A DNA stretch of 64,000 nucleotides, taken from positions 74,147 through 138,146 of the forward strand of contig CAVUTB010000018.1 in NCBI GenBank assembly GCA_963744315.1, written 5' to 3'. This document shows, in pieces, positions 2,849 through 32,551 of the stretch (positions are counted from its first letter, which is position 1; each line of letters begins with the position of its first letter). The translations under genes and the position numbers were made by a program. Source of the DNA: an uncultured Acidobacteriota bacterium. Its GTDB lineage: Bacteria; Acidobacteriota; Vicinamibacteria; Fen-336. The notes under the pieces are model-generated. The model did no database searches. It was given only the letters and a program-made list of their open reading frames with translations, and was not told where the DNA came from.

Positions 2849-3867
2849 GCGACAGGATCCGCGTGCTGGTGGTCGACGACTCGGCGTTCGTGCGCAAGGC
2901 CGTCGGGCGCATGCTCGCCACGGCCGACGACATCGAGGTGGTGGGCTTCGCGCGCGACGGCGAGGAGGGCCTGGCGCTCGCGCGCGAGCTGCGGCCGGAC
3001 GTGGTGACGCTCGACGTCCGCATGCCGAAGCTCGGCGGGCTCGAGACGCTCGAGCGGCTGATGGCCGAGCAGCCGGTTCCGGTGCTGCTGATGTCGACGC
3101 TCACGCAGGAGGGCGCCGAGACGACGCTGCGCGGGCTCGAGCTCGGCGCGATGGAGTTCGTCGACAAGTCCTCGGTCGAGCCGATGAGCATGCTGAGCCT
3201 GGCGGAGGAGCTGATCTCGAAGATCCGCGCGCTCGGCGGGGCGCGCGTGCGCTCGCGCCCGCGGACGCAGCCCAAGGGCGAGGCGGCGGCCGGCCGCGCC
3301 GCGGCGCAGTGCGTGACGATCGCGGCCTCGACCGGCGGGCCCTCGGCGCTGCAGGCGGTCGTCTCCGCGCTGCCCGCGGCCTTCCCCGCGGCGGTCGTGA
3401 TCGTGCAGCACATCCCGCGCGGCTTCACGCGCTCGCTCGCGGAGCGACTCGACGCCCGCAGCGCCATCCCCGTGCGCGAGGCGCGCCACGGCGACGCCGT
3501 CGAGCAGGGCCGGGTGCTGCTGGCTCCCGCGGGCATCCACACGCGCCTGGTGCGCTCACGCGCGGGAGTCGAGGTCTCGCTCGAGGAGGAGCCGAGCGAG
3601 GCGCTGCACCGGCCGTCGGCGGACGTGCTGATGTCCTCGGCTGCCGAGGTCTACGGCGCGCTCGCGGTGGGCGTGGTGCTCACCGGGATGGGCTCGGACG
3701 GCACGGAAGGCCTGCGCGCGATCAGGCAACGGGGCGGCCTCACGCTCGCCGAAGCCGAGGAGACCTGCGTCATCTTCGGGATGCCCAAGGCGGCGATCGA
3801 GGCGGGCGTGATCGAGCGCACCCTGCCGCTCGACCGCATCGCCGCCGAGATCCTGGGCGCGGTATAG
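2845..3867 (+). CDS. cheB: Protein-glutamate methylesterase CheB (REC + methylesterase)
   Basis: N-terminal receiver domain (VLVVDDSAFVRK ... DVRMPKLGG). C-terminal CheB catalytic domain (IAASTGGPSAL, VQHIP, GMGSDG). GTG start overlaps the cheR stop (GTGA). Confidence 0.9.
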   Translation: MSDRIRVLVVDDSAFVRKAVGRMLATADDIEVVGFARDGEEGLALARELRPDVVTLDVRMPKLGGLETLERLMAEQPVPVLLMSTLTQEGAETTLRGLELGAMEFVDKSSVEPMSMLSLAEELISKIRALGGARVRSRPRTQPKGEAAAGRAAAQCVTIAASTGGPSALQAVVSALPAAFPAAVVIVQHIPRGFTRSLAERLDARSAIPVREARHGDAVEQGRVLLAPAGIHTRLVRSRAGVEVSLEEEPSEALHRPSADVLMSSAAEVYGALAVGVVLTGMGSDGTEGLRAIRQRGGLTLAEAEETCVIFGMPKAAIEAGVIERTLPLDRIAAEILGAV

Positions 3868-3892
3868 TCCTCCCCGGAGACTGGAAGACCCT

Positions 3893-5726
3893 TTGGCTCT
3901 GCAAGGCAACCTGGAGGATCTGCCGCTCCTCGACATCATCCAGATCGTCTCCTTCAGCAAGAAGACCGGCTACCTCCACGTGCGGATGGAGGGCGGCGAC
4001 GGAGCGATCGTGTTCCGCGAGGGGCTCGTGGTTTCCGCGTTCACGGCGAACTCGCCGGCAGCCGACCCGCGCCTGGCGACGCTCGCGCCCGGGGCCAGGG
4101 ACACGGCCGTCAGGCGCAGGCTCGGCTTCGCGCTGGACGAGCTCGCGCGCCTGCGCGAGGGTGCCTTCGGATTCGAGCTGACCGACGCGGTTCCCGATAC
4201 CGTCGGCAAGCGCGACATCCGCCTGGAGACGCTCGTCGGCGGCATCAACCCGCAGGAGATGCTGCTCGCGCTGGCGCAGGGGATGGACGACGACCGCGCC
4301 CAGTCGGCGGCGGCCGTGGAGGCCTCGTTCGCGACGCCTGCCGAGGGCATGGTCGCCGCGGAGCTCGCCGCGCTCGTGCCGCCCGTGGTGCCGTCCGAAG
4401 CCGTGCGCACGGCGCTCGCCGCGCCGCCTTCGGCTCCCGCCGAACCTCCCGCGCCGCCGGCGCCAGCGCCCGAGGAGTTCGACGCGGCGCCGGCGCCTCG
4501 CTACGCGTCGGACACGCGTCCGCTTCCGAAGCTGCCGCGCCCGGAGCCGCCCGAGAAGGCGCCCGAAGAGGCGCCGCCGCCAGCCGCGCCTCCGCCGACG
4601 CGGCGCGAAGCCTCAGGCCGCCGAGCCTCCCGTCGCGGAAGCGCCCGCCGCGGAGCTGCCGCGCGCGGCGCGCACCATCCTGCTGGTCGACGACGAGCAG
4701 GACGTGCGCGAGGTGCTGGCCCGCCACTTCGGCGCGGCCGGCTTCGAGATCGTCGAGGGCGGGGATCCCGAGGAGGCCGCCAAGCTCGCGGCGCGCCTGC
4801 GCACCGAGGACAAGCTCTTCGTGCTGGTGACCGACCTCGGCATGCCGGCCTCGGGCGGGGCGTCGTTCCAGGGCGGCTTCGAGGTGGTGAAGCGGCTCTG
4901 GAAGATGAACCTGCGCCCGCCCGTGCTGATGATGACGGAGAGCCTCAACCAGTCGCTGCGGCTGCGCGCGCGCCAGATGGGGGTCCAGTCCTTCGTCTTC
5001 AAGCCGACGCTCAGCAAGCTCAACGCGCGCCAGTTCGAGGCCGACCTGCAGGCCTTCGCGGGCAAGCTGGTGCGCGACCTGCTGCCGCAGCTCGCCGAGA
5101 TCGCCGTGCTCAAGCAGCCGCAGGCCCGGCCGGCGCGCAAGCCGGAAGCGCGCGCCGCCGAGGCCGCACCCGTGGCGGAAGGCGCCGCCCGGCCCTTCGA
5201 GTTCCTCAAGCGCAGGCTCGTCGAGCTGCGCGAGGGCGGCGACGCCAACGAGATCGCGACGCTGGTGATGAAGGTGGCGCGCGAGTTCTTCGAGCGCGCG
5301 CTCCTGTTCCTGGTCAAGAACGAGGAGGCGCGCGGCCTCGGCGGCTTCGGGCTGGCGCCGCGCGAGGAAACCCTCAACCTGCTGGCGCGCCAGCTCACGA
5401 TCCCGCTCGGCGAGCCGTCGCTCTTCCGCCAGGTGGCGCACGAGCGCAGGGCGTTCAACGGGCCGCCACCCGCCGACCGCTGGCTCGGCCACGTGCTCGG
5501 CCGCATCGGCCGCTTCCAGTCGCACGGGATCGCGCTCTTGCCGCTGGTGGCGCACCGCGAGACGATCGCGATCGTGTTCGGCGACAATCCCGAGAGCGGC
5601 CGCGAGCCGGGGAACCTGGAGCCGCTCGAGGTGTTCGTGCAGCAGGCCGGGATCGCGCTCGAGAACGTGTTCCTGCAGAAGAAGCTGCAGGCGGCCGAAG
5701 ACAAGGACAGGGCGTCTCTGAGATAG
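3893..5726 (+). CDS. DUF4388-domain / Pro-Ala-rich linker / receiver (REC) / GAF-like C-terminal protein, with one +1 frame change near 4595-4605
   Basis: N-terminus LQGNLEDLPLLDIIQIVSFSKKTGYLHV matches the DUF4388 pattern. A Pro/Ala-rich linker continues in frame 3 (PQAAEPPVAEAPAAELPRAARTILLVDDEQDVREVL) into a receiver domain (ORF 4704..5726). The single 888-aa frame-2 ORF is an artefact. Confidence 0.65.
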
Positions 5727-24620: not shown

Positions 24621-30056
<5,436 letters not shown>

Positions 30057-30109
30057 GAAGGCTCCTCGGAGGATCGAAAGGAAGCTCTGCGAATTCATTC
30101 TAGACGGAA

Positions 30110-30170
30110 GGGGTCGGGTCTTGAATCAGCGCATCGCCGTCGCAAATGCGTCAATCCAAGACCTGACCCC
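30110..30170. repeat. REP/MITE-like nested palindromic element, copy 2
   Basis: GGGGTCGGGTCTTGAAT...ATCCAAGACCTGACCCC, about 90% identical to copy 1. Lies in the divergent region between fadB and the YkuK-like gene. Confidence 0.6.
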
Positions 30171-30186
30171 GCATTCTCCTTGACAG

Positions 30187-30215
30187 GGCCTCGTTCGCTG
30201 CCTACCTTCTGGAAG
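30187..30215 (+). promoter_or_regulatory. sigma70-like promoter TTGACA-N17-TACCTT
   Basis: cTTGACAgggcctcgttcgctgccTACCTTctgg, with a consensus -35. Confidence 0.4.
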
Positions 30216-30221
30216 CTGTGA

Positions 30222-30434
30222 GAAGGAACGTGCGCCTTTATCGAGCGAACGCGACGCGGGCCGCGAGCCCACACGCGCCACGGGTCTGGTCCGGGCCAAA
30301 GAGCCGGGACTTGAACCGCGTGTGTGAGCTCGGCGTGTCCGGCGGGGAGGGGACGTCACCCTAGGCCTGAAACGAGGCAGTCGTTCGCTTCGAGGCCTTC
30401 CGGGGTGACCCCCGGAAGGCCTTTTGCTTTCTGG
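30222..30434 (+). ncRNA. Candidate ~210-nt leader RNA (riboswitch, attenuator or small RNA) ending in a strong intrinsic terminator
   Basis: Bounded by the promoter above and a 12-bp perfect GC stem (GGCCTTCCGGGG-tgac-CCCCGGAAGGCC) plus TTTTGCTTTCT at 30394-30434. The terminator is 57 nt upstream of the ATG of the next gene. Confidence 0.4.
30394..30434 (+). terminator. Rho-independent terminator
   Basis: 12-bp perfect stem, 4-nt loop and U-rich tail. It is strand-specific: the opposite strand has no U-tract. Confidence 0.7.
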
Positions 30435-30490
30435 CCTCCGGGTGGGGAGGGTGCGTTCGGGACGGAATCGAGAGAGGATTGGGGAGCCGT

Positions 30491-30956
30491 GATGACCGAC
30501 CTGAAGCCGGGCTGGAAGACGCTGACGGGGACGCCGATCGGTGACGTCGTGGACTTCGTGCGCGAGCAGTCGCGCGACGGCCAGATCGTCCACCTCGGGA
30601 CCGACTCGCTCCAGCTCGCGCGCCACACGCGCTTCGTCACCGTCGTCGCGATCCTGACGCCGGGCCGCGGCGGCCGTGCGATCTGGACGCGCTCGACGAG
30701 CCCGCGGATCCGCTCGCTGCGGGAGCGGCTGCTGCGCGAGGTGTGGCTGTCGGTCGAGCTGGGTCTGCGGCTCGACTCGGTCATCCCGGGCGAGCTGCAC
30801 GTCCACATCGACGCCAACCCGATCGCGCGGCACCGCAGCAGCGCGTACGTGCAGGAATTGGTGGGCCTGGTCGTGAGCCAGGGGTTCCGGGCCGTCATCA
30901 AGCCCGAAGCCTGGGCGGCGAGCCGCGCCGCGGATCGTCTCGTCCGCGTCGCGTAA
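30491..30956 (+). CDS. YkuK/DUF458-like RNase-H-fold protein
   Basis: GGGGAG ribosome-binding site then ATG. QIVHLGTDSLQ...FVTVVAILTPGRGGRAIW...LRERLLREVWLSVELGLRL resembles the DUF458 pattern. Confidence 0.45.
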
Positions 30957-31102
30957 CCGCGTCCGTCCCCCACGAACGAAGCCGATAGGCTCCCGGGCCG
31001 GCGGCTCGCCTCGCCTCACTCCGTGATCGGCGAGGCGTGTTCCGCGCACGGGTTCTGACGAAGGGAGGGTGTCGGCACACCCATGGCCACGAGAAGTGGA
31101 AC

Positions 31103-31177
31103 GGGTAGCTAGCTCAGTGGGTAGAGCGCCGAGCGGATAACTCGGAGGTCGCAGGTTCGAATCCTGCGGTTTCGTCG
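31103..31177 (+). tRNA. tRNA-like sequence whose acceptor stem does not pair (degenerate tRNA, remnant or assembly error)
   Basis: Canonical D arm (GCTCAGTGGGTAGAGC) and T arm (GCAGG-TTCGAAT-CCTGC). Anticodon arm CCGAG-CGGATAA-CTCGG. The 5' acceptor GGGTAGC is not complementary to the 3' GGTTTCG. Confidence 0.35.
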
Positions 31178-31450
31178 TTGACGTAAGGCCGTACCGGTTC
31201 TCGGGAGCGGGCGTCCACTCGCCGGCCCGGGTCCCGCGCCCGTCGAGGGCGGGGCCCTGGCGAGCGCGGAAGACGTCCTGCGACGCGCGACGCAGCCGGT
31301 CCCGATGTCCCGCTGGTCCGCACGACGGTGGGACGGAAGGCCCGGACGCCCGCGGGTCCCACGTCCGAGGCGTGGCGGGAGGCCGTTCCGCCCCGAGGGC
31401 CGTCTTCGTGCGAGTCGTTCGAGTCTTCGAAATGAGAGGAGGTCGTCGTC

Positions 31451-32551
31451 ATGCTGCGCCGTTTCAAGGTCCGTGAGCACGAGCGAGGGCTCCTGTTCCG
31501 GGACCGTGTGTTCCAGGACGTGCTGGGGCCGGGGGTCCACTTCTTCCTCGACCCGCTCTTCAAGCTGGCGTGCGAGATCGTGCCGGTGCGTTCGCCGTGG
31601 CTGGTCCACGGCGACCTGGACGTGATCGTGCGCTCGGGAGCGCTGCGCCGCGAGGCGCAGGTGCTCGACCTGAAGTCCCACGAGCGGGCGATCGTCTGGG
31701 TCGACGGCCGACTCGAGGCCGTGCTGAAGCCGGGGCTCCACGCGCTGTGGACGGTGTTCCGCCACGTCAAGGTGGAGCTCGTCGACGCGCGCGGGGCGCT
31801 CTTCGAGCACGAGCAGCTCGCGACGATCCTCGGGCTGCCGGGCTCGGCGCTGCAGCTGGAGACCGTGACGGTCGAGCCGGGCCACGCCGGCCTGCTCTTC
31901 CGCAACGGCCGCCACGAGGCGACGCTCGGCCCGGGCCTGTACGCGCTCTGGAAGGGCGTCGCCCGCGCCAAGGTCGAGGTCGTCGAGCTGCGCGAGCAGA
32001 CGGCCGACGTCGCCGGGCAGGAGATCATGACCGCCGACAAGGTCACGCTGCGCCTCAACGCGGTCGTGACCTTCAAGGTGGCGGATCCGCTGCGCGTCGT
32101 CTCGGCCGCCCCGGACTACCGCCAGGCTCTCTACCGCGAGGCGCAGCTGGCGCTGCGCGCCGTCGTCGGGGCGCGCACGCTCGAGGCGCTGCTCGGAGAG
32201 AAGGAGGCGGTGGCCCGCGAGCTCGACGGCGCGCTGCGGACGCGCGCGGCCGAGCTCGGTGTCGTGGTCGTCTCGCTCGGGATCCGCGACGTGATCCTGC
32301 CGGGCGAGATGAAGGAGCTCATGAACCGCGTCATCGAGGCGCAGAAGGCGGCCGAGGCCGCGCTCGTCACGCGCCGCGAGGAGACGGCGGCCATGCGCTC
32401 GCAGGCGAACACGGCGCGGCTGTTCGAGCAGAACCCGACGCTCATGCGGCTGCGTGAGCTCGAGACGCTCGAGAAGGTGGCCGAGAAGGGCCGCCTGTCG
32501 GTCGTGGTCGGCGAGGGCGGCCTCGCCGGCCGGATCGTGAAGATGGTGTAG
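31451..32551 (+). CDS. SPFH/band-7 (stomatin/slipin-like) protein
   Basis: GAGGAGG ribosome-binding site. SPFH core (QEIMTADKVTLRLNAVVTFKV...RELDGALR...LGVVVVSLGIRDV) with a C-terminal coiled coil. Confidence 0.8.
   Translation: MLRRFKVREHERGLLFRDRVFQDVLGPGVHFFLDPLFKLACEIVPVRSPWLVHGDLDVIVRSGALRREAQVLDLKSHERAIVWVDGRLEAVLKPGLHALWTVFRHVKVELVDARGALFEHEQLATILGLPGSALQLETVTVEPGHAGLLFRNGRHEATLGPGLYALWKGVARAKVEVVELREQTADVAGQEIMTADKVTLRLNAVVTFKVADPLRVVSAAPDYRQALYREAQLALRAVVGARTLEALLGEKEAVARELDGALRTRAAELGVVVVSLGIRDVILPGEMKELMNRVIEAQKAAEAALVTRREETAAMRSQANTARLFEQNPTLMRLRELETLEKVAEKGRLSVVVGEGGLAGRIVKMV

Follow-up and report, generated by a model that had tools for sequence, protein, structure and literature searches.

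The stretch of DNA analysed here, called the window throughout, comprises 64,000 nt of contig CAVUTB010000018.1 from an uncultured Acidobacteriota bacterium. Directly upstream of a ykuK-like gene it carries a compact unit, with about 215 nt between its promoter and the end of its intrinsic terminator, that we think is probably a ribosome-mediated (leader-peptide) transcription attenuator. The unit belongs to an undescribed family in Vicinamibacteria-type Acidobacteriota; the window copy is a class A member of that family and would control ykuK, a tRNA-like element and perhaps a Band_7 gene. Its anatomy, its conservation, the maintenance of a small open reading frame (sORF) in the leader, the RNA helices and the genomic associations are direct observations. 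An original prediction, made from the window alone, had offered a riboswitch, an attenuator or a small RNA (sRNA) for this region. The attenuator is the part that stands, with a unit conserved together with ykuK; a non-coding ligand sensor fails on the missing Rfam match, the variable core and the kept open reading frame (ORF).

Promoter, leader ORF and terminator

A consensus -35 hexamer, a 17-nt spacer and TACCTT, all proposed earlier, can be read directly at slightly corrected coordinates (Table 1), and the combination TTGACA-N17-TAnnnT occurs only once on the two strands of the window. Transcription is predicted to start at about 30214-30217. Among the relatives described in the next section, 52 distinct units have a located promoter of the pattern TTGACR-N17-18-TAnnnT, and the ORF statistics given here are taken over these. 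Their -35 is TTGACA in 51 and TTGACG in one; across the family the -10 consensus is TAnnTT, with the spacing fixed at 17 nt. Both hexamers and their spacing are conserved, and the sequence 5' of the -35 is not. No promoter of the same pattern was found in seven further family loci.

The terminator pairs AGGCCTTCCGGGG (30393-30405) with CCCCGGAAGGCCT (30410-30422) in 13 perfect base pairs and ends in the tail TTTTGCTTTCT (30423-30433). The perfect stem, TGAC loop and U-tail of the original prediction therefore hold, with the stem corrected from 12 to 13 bp and the gap to ykuK from 57 to 59 nt. Folded alone, the hairpin scores z = -4.95 relative to shuffles. The fadB-like upstream gene is divergent (minus strand), so that, as had been argued, no convergent gene needs this terminator. 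A simple consensus scan found no sigma-70-like site between the terminator and ykuK.

The leader had been called non-coding, and this claim has to be given up: a conserved, frame-maintained sORF lies inside it. Besides the start listed in Table 1, an invariant GTG at 30218 is an alternative that would give 48 codons. In 51 of the 52 units no stop interrupts the sORF frame between the predicted transcription start and the sORF stop; for the other two frames the numbers are 1 and 14. A Shine-Dalgarno (SD)-like motif with an in-frame start no more than 40 nt from the predicted start site is present in 46 units (3 and 0 for the other frames). Start codons across the family are GTG (39), TTG (6) and ATG (2), and the stops are TAG (37) or TAA (15), with TGA at loci L071 and L096. 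The last sense codon before the stop is CCC in 48 cases, CCT in 3 and TCC in 1, with CCG in L006.

The sORFs differ in length across the family, from 33 to 56 codons. Among the window-type units (class A), nine different spacings separate the invariant GTG (of TGTGAG) from the stop; they range from 108 to 147 nt, and each is divisible by 3. At least eight length changes are implied, and with a one-in-three chance for each, the probability that all would be in frame is ~1.5e-4. Substitutions show no bias among the three codon positions: the counts are 23/20/22 for one class A group, 26/25/20 for another and 77/68/53 for class B. About half of the residues differ between the leader peptides of close relatives, as estimated from the peptides themselves. 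The middle of the peptide varies freely in length and sequence; the ends are conserved, as x-[IL]-[HYR]-[RF]-x-N-[AS] at the N-terminus and [VL]D..EGxAP at the C-terminus. No Pfam or NCBIfam family matched the leader peptides.

Even substitution among codon positions, combined with a kept frame, points to selection on translation and its end point rather than on the peptide. Judged by sequence, an ORF kept translatable without peptide conservation is the signature of a regulatory leader ORF. A bona fide small protein, taken as the main explanation, was rejected for want of a third-position excess and of a protein family match.

Table 1. Features of the unit and of the genes that follow it (window coordinates)
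Feature	Position	Strand	Details
-35 hexamer TTGACA	30180-30185	+	read directly; just outside the start given in the original prediction
-10 hexamer TACCTT	30203-30208	+	17-nt spacer after the -35; read directly
SD-like GAGAAGGA	30220-30227	+	within conserved 5' block TGTGAGRARGAAMGTG; conserved columns in alignments A2 and A3
Leader sORF	30230-30364	+	GTG start at 30230, 44 codons, TAG at 30362; ends ...GGEGTSP-TAG
P1 helix, 5' strand	30250-30264	+	pairs with 30333-30346; RNAalifold consensus
P2 long irregular hairpin	30265-30332	+	inside the sORF, enclosed by P1, variable length
P1 helix, 3' strand	30333-30346	+	RNAalifold consensus, pair counts
Small hairpin AGGG(30348-51)/CCCU(30359-62)	30348-30362	+	over Gly-Glu-Gly codons, Pro codon and first stop base
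CCC-TAG-GCCTG (Pro codon, stop, post-stop GGCCUG)	30359-30369	+	candidate antiterminator strand; mimics terminator 3' arm
Spacer hairpin	30373-30392	+	predicted; between sORF stop and terminator
Intrinsic terminator	30393-30432	+	13-bp perfect stem, loop TGAC, U-rich tail; 28 nt past the sORF stop, 59 nt before ykuK
Post-terminator leader	30433-30491	+	GGCCTCC...GGGGAGGGTGCGTT...; ykuK Shine-Dalgarno GGGGAG at 30482-30487
ykuK-like gene	30492-30956	+	RNase H-like YkuK/DUF458, PF04308 E 5.6e-28; first gene past the terminator
Degenerate tRNA-like element	31104-31176	+	anticodon GAU, weak acceptor stem, no CCA; Rfam tRNA 45.3 bits, model positions 8-63 only
Band_7/SPFH gene	31451-32551	+	possible distal operon member

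Relatives of the unit and the genes they precede

A YkuK protein search gave six genome loci from uncultured Acidobacteriota and Vicinamibacteria, and eight YkuK homologues gave twelve more metagenome and Logan loci. With a hidden Markov model of the unit, promoter, leader and terminator were found directly upstream of ykuK in every recovered Vicinamibacteria-type locus, whether the neighbour on the other side was fadB, sulfatase or HlyIII. A metagenome scan with the terminator pattern returned 79 loci, with about 60 distinct units that share a 3' module; viral contigs scanned with the same pattern gave no match. The shared module reads ...GGAGGG-N5-8-CCC-stop, followed by a GGYCUG-like block 0-7 nt past the stop (recurring in most of the 60 distinct modules), a short spacer hairpin and a near-identical terminator.

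Class A units precede ykuK, or tRNA-Leu and ykuK. In loci with enough downstream sequence, ykuK is co-oriented and lies 34-409 nt after the unit, directly or behind one tRNA-Leu, and the gap stays within about 210 nt except in L005. In several loci a tRNA-Leu(CAG) gene stands between terminator and ykuK, which argues against a simple 5'-UTR (untranslated region) riboswitch for ykuK. Class B units have a longer, unrelated 5' part on the common 3' platform. Right behind them, in the same orientation, come long tRNA gene arrays, with 21 tRNAs in about 2 kb in L019, 19 each in L040 and L061, and 11 in L032, L041 and L060. An L-array (tRNA array unit) has been defined as at least 20 tRNA genes at a density of at least 2 per kb (PMC4758250). 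The relatives L019, L040 and L061 reach that number of tRNA genes or come close to it, and the window has a single degenerate tRNA-like element. Often no more than 64-90 nt separate the terminator from the first tRNA, and a consensus scan of these gaps found no TTGACA-type promoter; in 2.6 kb of L040 that were scanned there were no promoter-like sites, and the single terminator was the unit's own.

Other variants of the family precede asd (aspartate-semialdehyde dehydrogenase), MatE transporter and Band_7/SPFH genes, with no ykuK nearby; for Band_7, in other genomes, the unit stands directly before a tRNA-like element and the Band_7 gene, or before the gene alone. The asd variant (L024 minus, L066 plus) has a -35 of TTGCAC and ends about 25 nt before the asd start. 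Its leader peptide ends LGLYKRTSKKG(A/S)ITP-stop (LGLYKRTSKKGAITP-stop) and is rich in Lys and Thr, which is what amino-acid attenuation would lead one to expect; the variant looks like a Lys/Thr-codon attenuator on the common 3' platform. Behind every unit with enough downstream sequence, L026 alone excepted, a tRNA array, ykuK, asd, MatE or Band_7 lies in the same orientation at a distance of about 25-410 nt.

Conditional read-through into ykuK, one of the ideas originally put forward, gains from these associations, with the unit conserved beside ykuK and also preceding tRNA arrays for which no sigma-70-type promoter was found. An alternative that we consider unlikely is that the unit is an independent small gene (an sRNA, a small protein or a dual-function RNA) with a constitutive terminator, and that ykuK and the arrays use unrecognised promoters of their own or a fixed low-level leakage. 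Such a gene would be expected to run, as the unit does, from its own promoter to a very strong terminator, and the conserved ends of the leader peptide suit it as well. The unusually conserved terminator sequence could mark a protein-binding 3' end, and trans action is on record for attenuator-derived RNAs and leader peptides, with rnTrpL/peTrpL as an example (PMC6614838, PMC7298713). An independent gene would not, however, call for the co-oriented cargo gene that follows every unit but L026, nor for the lack of a sigma-70-like promoter in the 64-90-nt array gaps of a lineage that clearly uses consensus -35 boxes. The absence of codon-position bias and the free sequence and length of the peptide middle also speak against it, and pure sRNA function would leave the maintenance of the frame unexplained.

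In the window, the first gene past the terminator is YkuK/DUF458-like, as had been suggested, with its ATG at 30492 and an in-frame GTG at 30489. The tRNA-like element behind it probably belongs to the ykuK transcription unit, and the interval from ykuK to Band_7 contains no convincing terminator. Elements of this kind also lie between ykuK and Band_7 in L002 (4585-4658), L003 (4578-4650) and L043 (2059-2134, minus). From genome to genome they hardly differ in D-arm, anticodon stem and T-arm; they have a degenerate acceptor stem and no encoded CCA. The anticodon triplet is different in each (GAU, CAU, GGA, GCU and others that ARAGORN cannot name). Such an element might serve as a signal for processing and not in decoding.

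Homologues with 64-67% identity to the window's YkuK protein also occur without the leader unit (L014 and L015, 1-6483; L016, 1-6477). These are within phage-like arrays, in which 11-13 tRNA genes are interspersed with small ORFs, with HNH and 3D domains nearby. On this evidence YkuK/DUF458 seems to be a nuclease that goes with tRNA arrays, in cells as well as in phage-like settings.

Some peculiarities of the family loci deserve mention: (i) In relatives of the L002 type a class B unit and its array stand divergently back-to-back with the class A ykuK unit, the -35 boxes being less than 20 nt apart. This arrangement is found in L007 (77-355, minus, beside 372-638, plus), L031, L045, L070, L033 and L019 (9491-12063), and fadB fills that position in the window. 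(ii) The two most distant ykuK loci (70% identity), L005 and L006, have an ORF of ~110 codons between leader unit and ykuK (3600-4000 in each). (iii) The tRNAs with Leu anticodons (CAG, GAG, CAA) in arrays and class A loci are only 76 nt long, without the long variable arm that one would expect in a bacterial tRNA-Leu (L003 3895-3970; L040 2275-2350, minus; L019 10895-11049, minus; L061 1737-1812, minus), and the Ser and Tyr tRNAs of those arrays retain theirs (88-89 nt). All of the short tRNA-Leu genes encode CCA, and the class A copy has an A1-C72 mismatch. (iv) Further conserved blocks occur 3' of the terminator, first a hairpin GGCCUCAAGCCCG...CGGGCCAGGCY and then GGGAGGKUGUGUCUUCGA...GAGACGUGA; loci with longer gaps add GGGTCTTTGACAAC...CCGGTGAACGACACCGG, which contains TTGACA without a recognisable -10. 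The blocks lie between terminator and first tRNA in L019 (11453-11535), L040 (2757-2845), L041, L060 and L061, and are present in L028, L031, L032, L075 and L085. Window positions 30433-30470 resemble the second block, and the whole of 30433-30491 resembles the conserved block GGCC..GGGAGGKTGTGTCT that precedes tRNA arrays. (v) On the other side of the unit, between the divergent fadB-like gene and the -35, the window has a 25-nt imperfect inverted repeat (30110-30170; GGGGTCGGGTCTTGAATCAGCGCAT / ATGCGTCAATCCAAGACCTGACCCC, 80% complementary, 11-nt gap). It is present in L001 and not in L002, and may be an operator for the fadBA operon.

RNA structure and the proposed switch

A consensus structure was obtained by running RNAalifold on 34 class A sequences. 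Its P1 helix covaries, with columns 53:127 occupied by AU (12), GC (10) and GU (7). In pair counts 97% of cells are paired and seven pairs change on both sides, values that none of 500 shuffles reaches; slid controls are paired in only 35-61%. An alignment of relatives had been named as the place to look for covarying helices, and it yields P1, along with leader and terminator retained at orthologous Vicinamibacteria-type loci. Hairpin P2 is 24-30 nt shorter in the L003/L004/L009 group, every length change being a multiple of 3. The small AGGG/CCCU hairpin is paired in 96% of cells, with one-sided variation only. Where the window has its spacer hairpin, relatives hold one of different sequence, by reading rather than by a formal test. 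In 33 distinct sequences every position of the terminator stem is paired (100%), and its sequence hardly varies, an unusual degree of conservation if it were a plain terminator; the distance from stop codon to U-tail is constrained to 52-63 nt.

A metabolite-binding riboswitch, with the GC-rich leader as its aptamer, would have this same architecture of promoter, structured leader and terminator; the covariation of P1 and the fold of the whole leader (z = -4.0) agree with it. We nevertheless regard it as very improbable. The region enclosed by P1 shifts by 24-30 nt in length and changes in sequence between close relatives, a frame-maintained ORF runs through the would-be aptamer, and class B units set an unrelated, longer 5' part on the same 3' platform. 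The downstream genes are, besides, functionally heterogeneous. The leader had matched no known riboswitch class by eye, and covariance models likewise found no family for it. At the gathering score, the tRNA-like element is the sole Rfam 15 match in the window, with none in the leader; a search of 30050-31250 at E<=10 adds, for the leader, nothing but sub-threshold chance matches to mir-607, flavi_FSE and Rhizobiales-2, the spurious mir-607 match being produced by P2. Resemblances to 6S RNA, signal recognition particle (SRP) RNA and CsrB-like sponges were considered by eye and dropped, the unit being multi-copy, ORF-bearing and tied to downstream genes.

The candidate for an antiterminator strand is found at the end of the sORF. 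The sequence CCC-stop-(0-7 nt)-GGCCUG resembles the terminator 3' arm, CCCC(U)GGAAGGCCU, and in L076 the post-stop sequence is GGAAGGCCU itself, identical to the last nine nucleotides of that arm. In 26 of the 52 units, that of the window included, no segment pairs better with the terminator 5' arm than the 21 nt at the stop codon. In the minimum free energy (MFE) fold of nascent RNA 30337-30405, the 5' arm (30393-30405) is paired to CCC (30359-61) and AGGCCU (30363-68), with the spacer hairpin enclosed, and the class B unit of L040 shows an equivalent pairing in its nascent-RNA MFE. Another antiterminator, made by the P1 3' strand (GGCCUUCGUG in L009 and L058) with CGACGAAGGCC, was tried and was convincing in few units only.

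We envision the following sequence of events. Transcription would start from the strong sigma-70-type promoter (30180-30208), and a translated sORF would take up the first ~150 nt of the RNA. In order, this transcript would carry the sORF (30230-30364), 28 nt, the terminator (30393-30432), ykuK, the tRNA-like element and, probably, Band_7. The Pro codon, stop and post-stop GGCCUG (30359-30369) would pair with the terminator 5' arm as long as the true 3' arm has not yet been transcribed. A ribosome keeping pace with RNA polymerase, and thus positioned on Pro-stop, would mask this mimic of the 3' arm, so that the terminator forms and an RNA of ~215 nt is released; such a terminated RNA is the expected by-product of attenuation. 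If instead the ribosome falls behind, or stalls on the Gly-Glu-Gly codons (pairing partners of the mimic), the mimic would stay exposed and form the antiterminator, with read-through into ykuK as the result. A C-terminal proline slows termination in E. coli. The likely input, given that the cassette stands before long tRNA arrays in relatives, is translation status or tRNA supply, and the cassette may couple tRNA supply to ribosome performance. The proposed direction draws support from the asd variant, in which the Lys/Thr codons are placed exactly in the stretch before the stop. The alternative pairing and the direction of the response are what we infer: from its context the existence of a switch is well supported, and its exact strands and direction are not.

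Several points weigh against an attenuator. (i) The window's leader has no regulatory codon run, and a Lys/Thr-rich stretch is seen only in the asd-linked variant; such a run defines the amino-acid attenuator subclass and not the inhibitor-responsive attenuators. (ii) Shuffled GC-rich sequence gives pairings as stable as the antiterminator (z about 0), and half of the units (e.g. the L002 group, with AGCCUG) have some other upstream segment that is a better partner for the 5' arm. Unconstrained RNAduplex runs of the whole upstream transcript against the 5' arm likewise give energies no better than dinucleotide shuffles, with best sites that differ between units; the stop-codon region is singled out only by the windowed ranking and the nascent-RNA folds. 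(iii) The AGGCC blocks are invariant, which puts the pairing of stop region and 5' arm beyond the reach of covariation. (iv) At 13 bp, the terminator is ~10 kcal/mol more stable than the antiterminator and could displace it. (v) The conserved N- and C-terminal motifs may mean that the peptide is functional. (vi) Simple consensus scans could miss real promoters before ykuK or the arrays, and the transcription start, translation and read-through are all predictions from the DNA.

The unusual conservation past the stop codon can also be taken to mean that a trans-acting factor bypasses the terminator, whether an antiterminator protein, YkuK itself on the conserved hairpins or, as in a T-box, uncharged tRNA, the ORF being incidental. 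Across paralogues the terminator, the spacer region and the block GGCC..GGGAGGKUGUGUCU are conserved beyond what a plain terminator needs, and regulated genes that encode tRNAs and an RNase H-like nuclease would suit such a factor. We give this possibility little weight: neither a T-box nor any other Rfam family matches, even at E<=10, the asd, MatE and Band_7 units have no ykuK nearby, and the conserved frame, start and stop of the ORF are left unexplained.

On the attenuator reading, a wider and more tentative proposal is that one modular cassette senses ribosome performance and opens a translation-stress regulon of supernumerary tRNA arrays, YkuK, the SPFH protein and the MatE exporter. The lead ribosome would lag, or stall on Gly/Glu/Lys/Asp codons just before Pro-stop. 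For the arrays this would form an autoregulatory loop, in which the sensing codons GGG, GAG, AAG and GAY would be decoded by the array-head tRNAs Gly-UCC, Lys-CUU, Asp-GUC and Glu-CUC. The correlation of leader codons with the first tRNA of the array (e.g. class B Trp codons with tRNA-Trp first) is imperfect.

Known attenuators and the meaning of the family

Classical leader-peptide attenuators serve the trp, his, thr, leu, pheA and ilv amino-acid operons (e.g. PMC1183508, PMC3082878). In the proposed reading the unit shares their order of promoter, short translated ORF, alternative RNA pairings, intrinsic terminator and structural genes, as well as a stop codon just 5' of the strand that would compete for the terminator 5' arm and a peptide sequence that is largely unconstrained; the asd-linked member has Lys/Thr codons in the critical stretch. 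It departs from them in its long ORF (33-56 codons) running through a large covarying helix, in the lack of a regulatory codon run in the window's leader and in the repeated use of a single conserved 3' platform (Pro-stop with GGCCUG, the spacer hairpin and a near-identical terminator) before unrelated operons. The family's main cargo is also different, being tRNA arrays and an RNase H-like nuclease where the classical attenuators serve biosynthetic enzymes.

Inhibitor-responsive, ribosome-mediated attenuators such as B. subtilis bmrCD (PMC4191407) and mef/mel (PMC4335068) offer a second comparison. They too combine a leader ORF with a terminator, and they sense a general slowing of ribosomes instead of a single amino acid; one member of the present family precedes a MatE efflux gene. 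Those systems, however, control resistance or efflux genes in Firmicutes and have no sequence in common with the unit; a response of the unit to antibiotics would be hypothetical. In Sinorhizobium, the attenuator-derived RNA rnTrpL and peptide peTrpL act in trans (PMC6614838, PMC7298713). By analogy, a terminated RNA of defined size and a leader peptide could accumulate from the strong promoter of our unit and do likewise, although no target or trans function can be inferred for them and there is no sequence relationship.

For the tRNA arrays the nearest parallel is the trn L-array of Anabaena sp. PCC 7120, which is silent, has a strong sigma-70-type promoter and is induced under translational stress; its repressor TrcR binds direct repeats over the -10 and transcription start site (PMC8421152, PMC10272220). 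The biological logic is the same as that proposed here, with a repressor there and post-initiation control through a translated leader here. The words 'leader', 'attenuat' and 'terminator' are absent from the text of PMC8421152, a 2021 survey that counts Acidobacteria among the phyla with mostly stand-alone tRNA genes, and our literature searches met no case of leader-peptide attenuation controlling tRNA genes.

Leader-peptide attenuation is a textbook mechanism, and the regulation of long tRNA arrays is known only for Anabaena, by a repressor. One lesson for annotation is that a frame-maintained ORF, free of any protein-level signal, can go unnoticed in a 'GC-rich non-coding leader'. If our reading is right, the family would add to Rfam an RNA that is missing from it and would include the first leader-peptide attenuator known for tRNA genes, reaching the same outcome as the Anabaena L-array repressor by a different route. 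It would be a compact, portable expression platform reused before several operons, and the uncharacterised YkuK/DUF458 nuclease would gain a testable context, that of tRNA arrays in cells and phage-like contigs. For this abundant and poorly studied soil phylum, it would mean a direct, protein-free link from ribosome speed to tRNA gene dosage.

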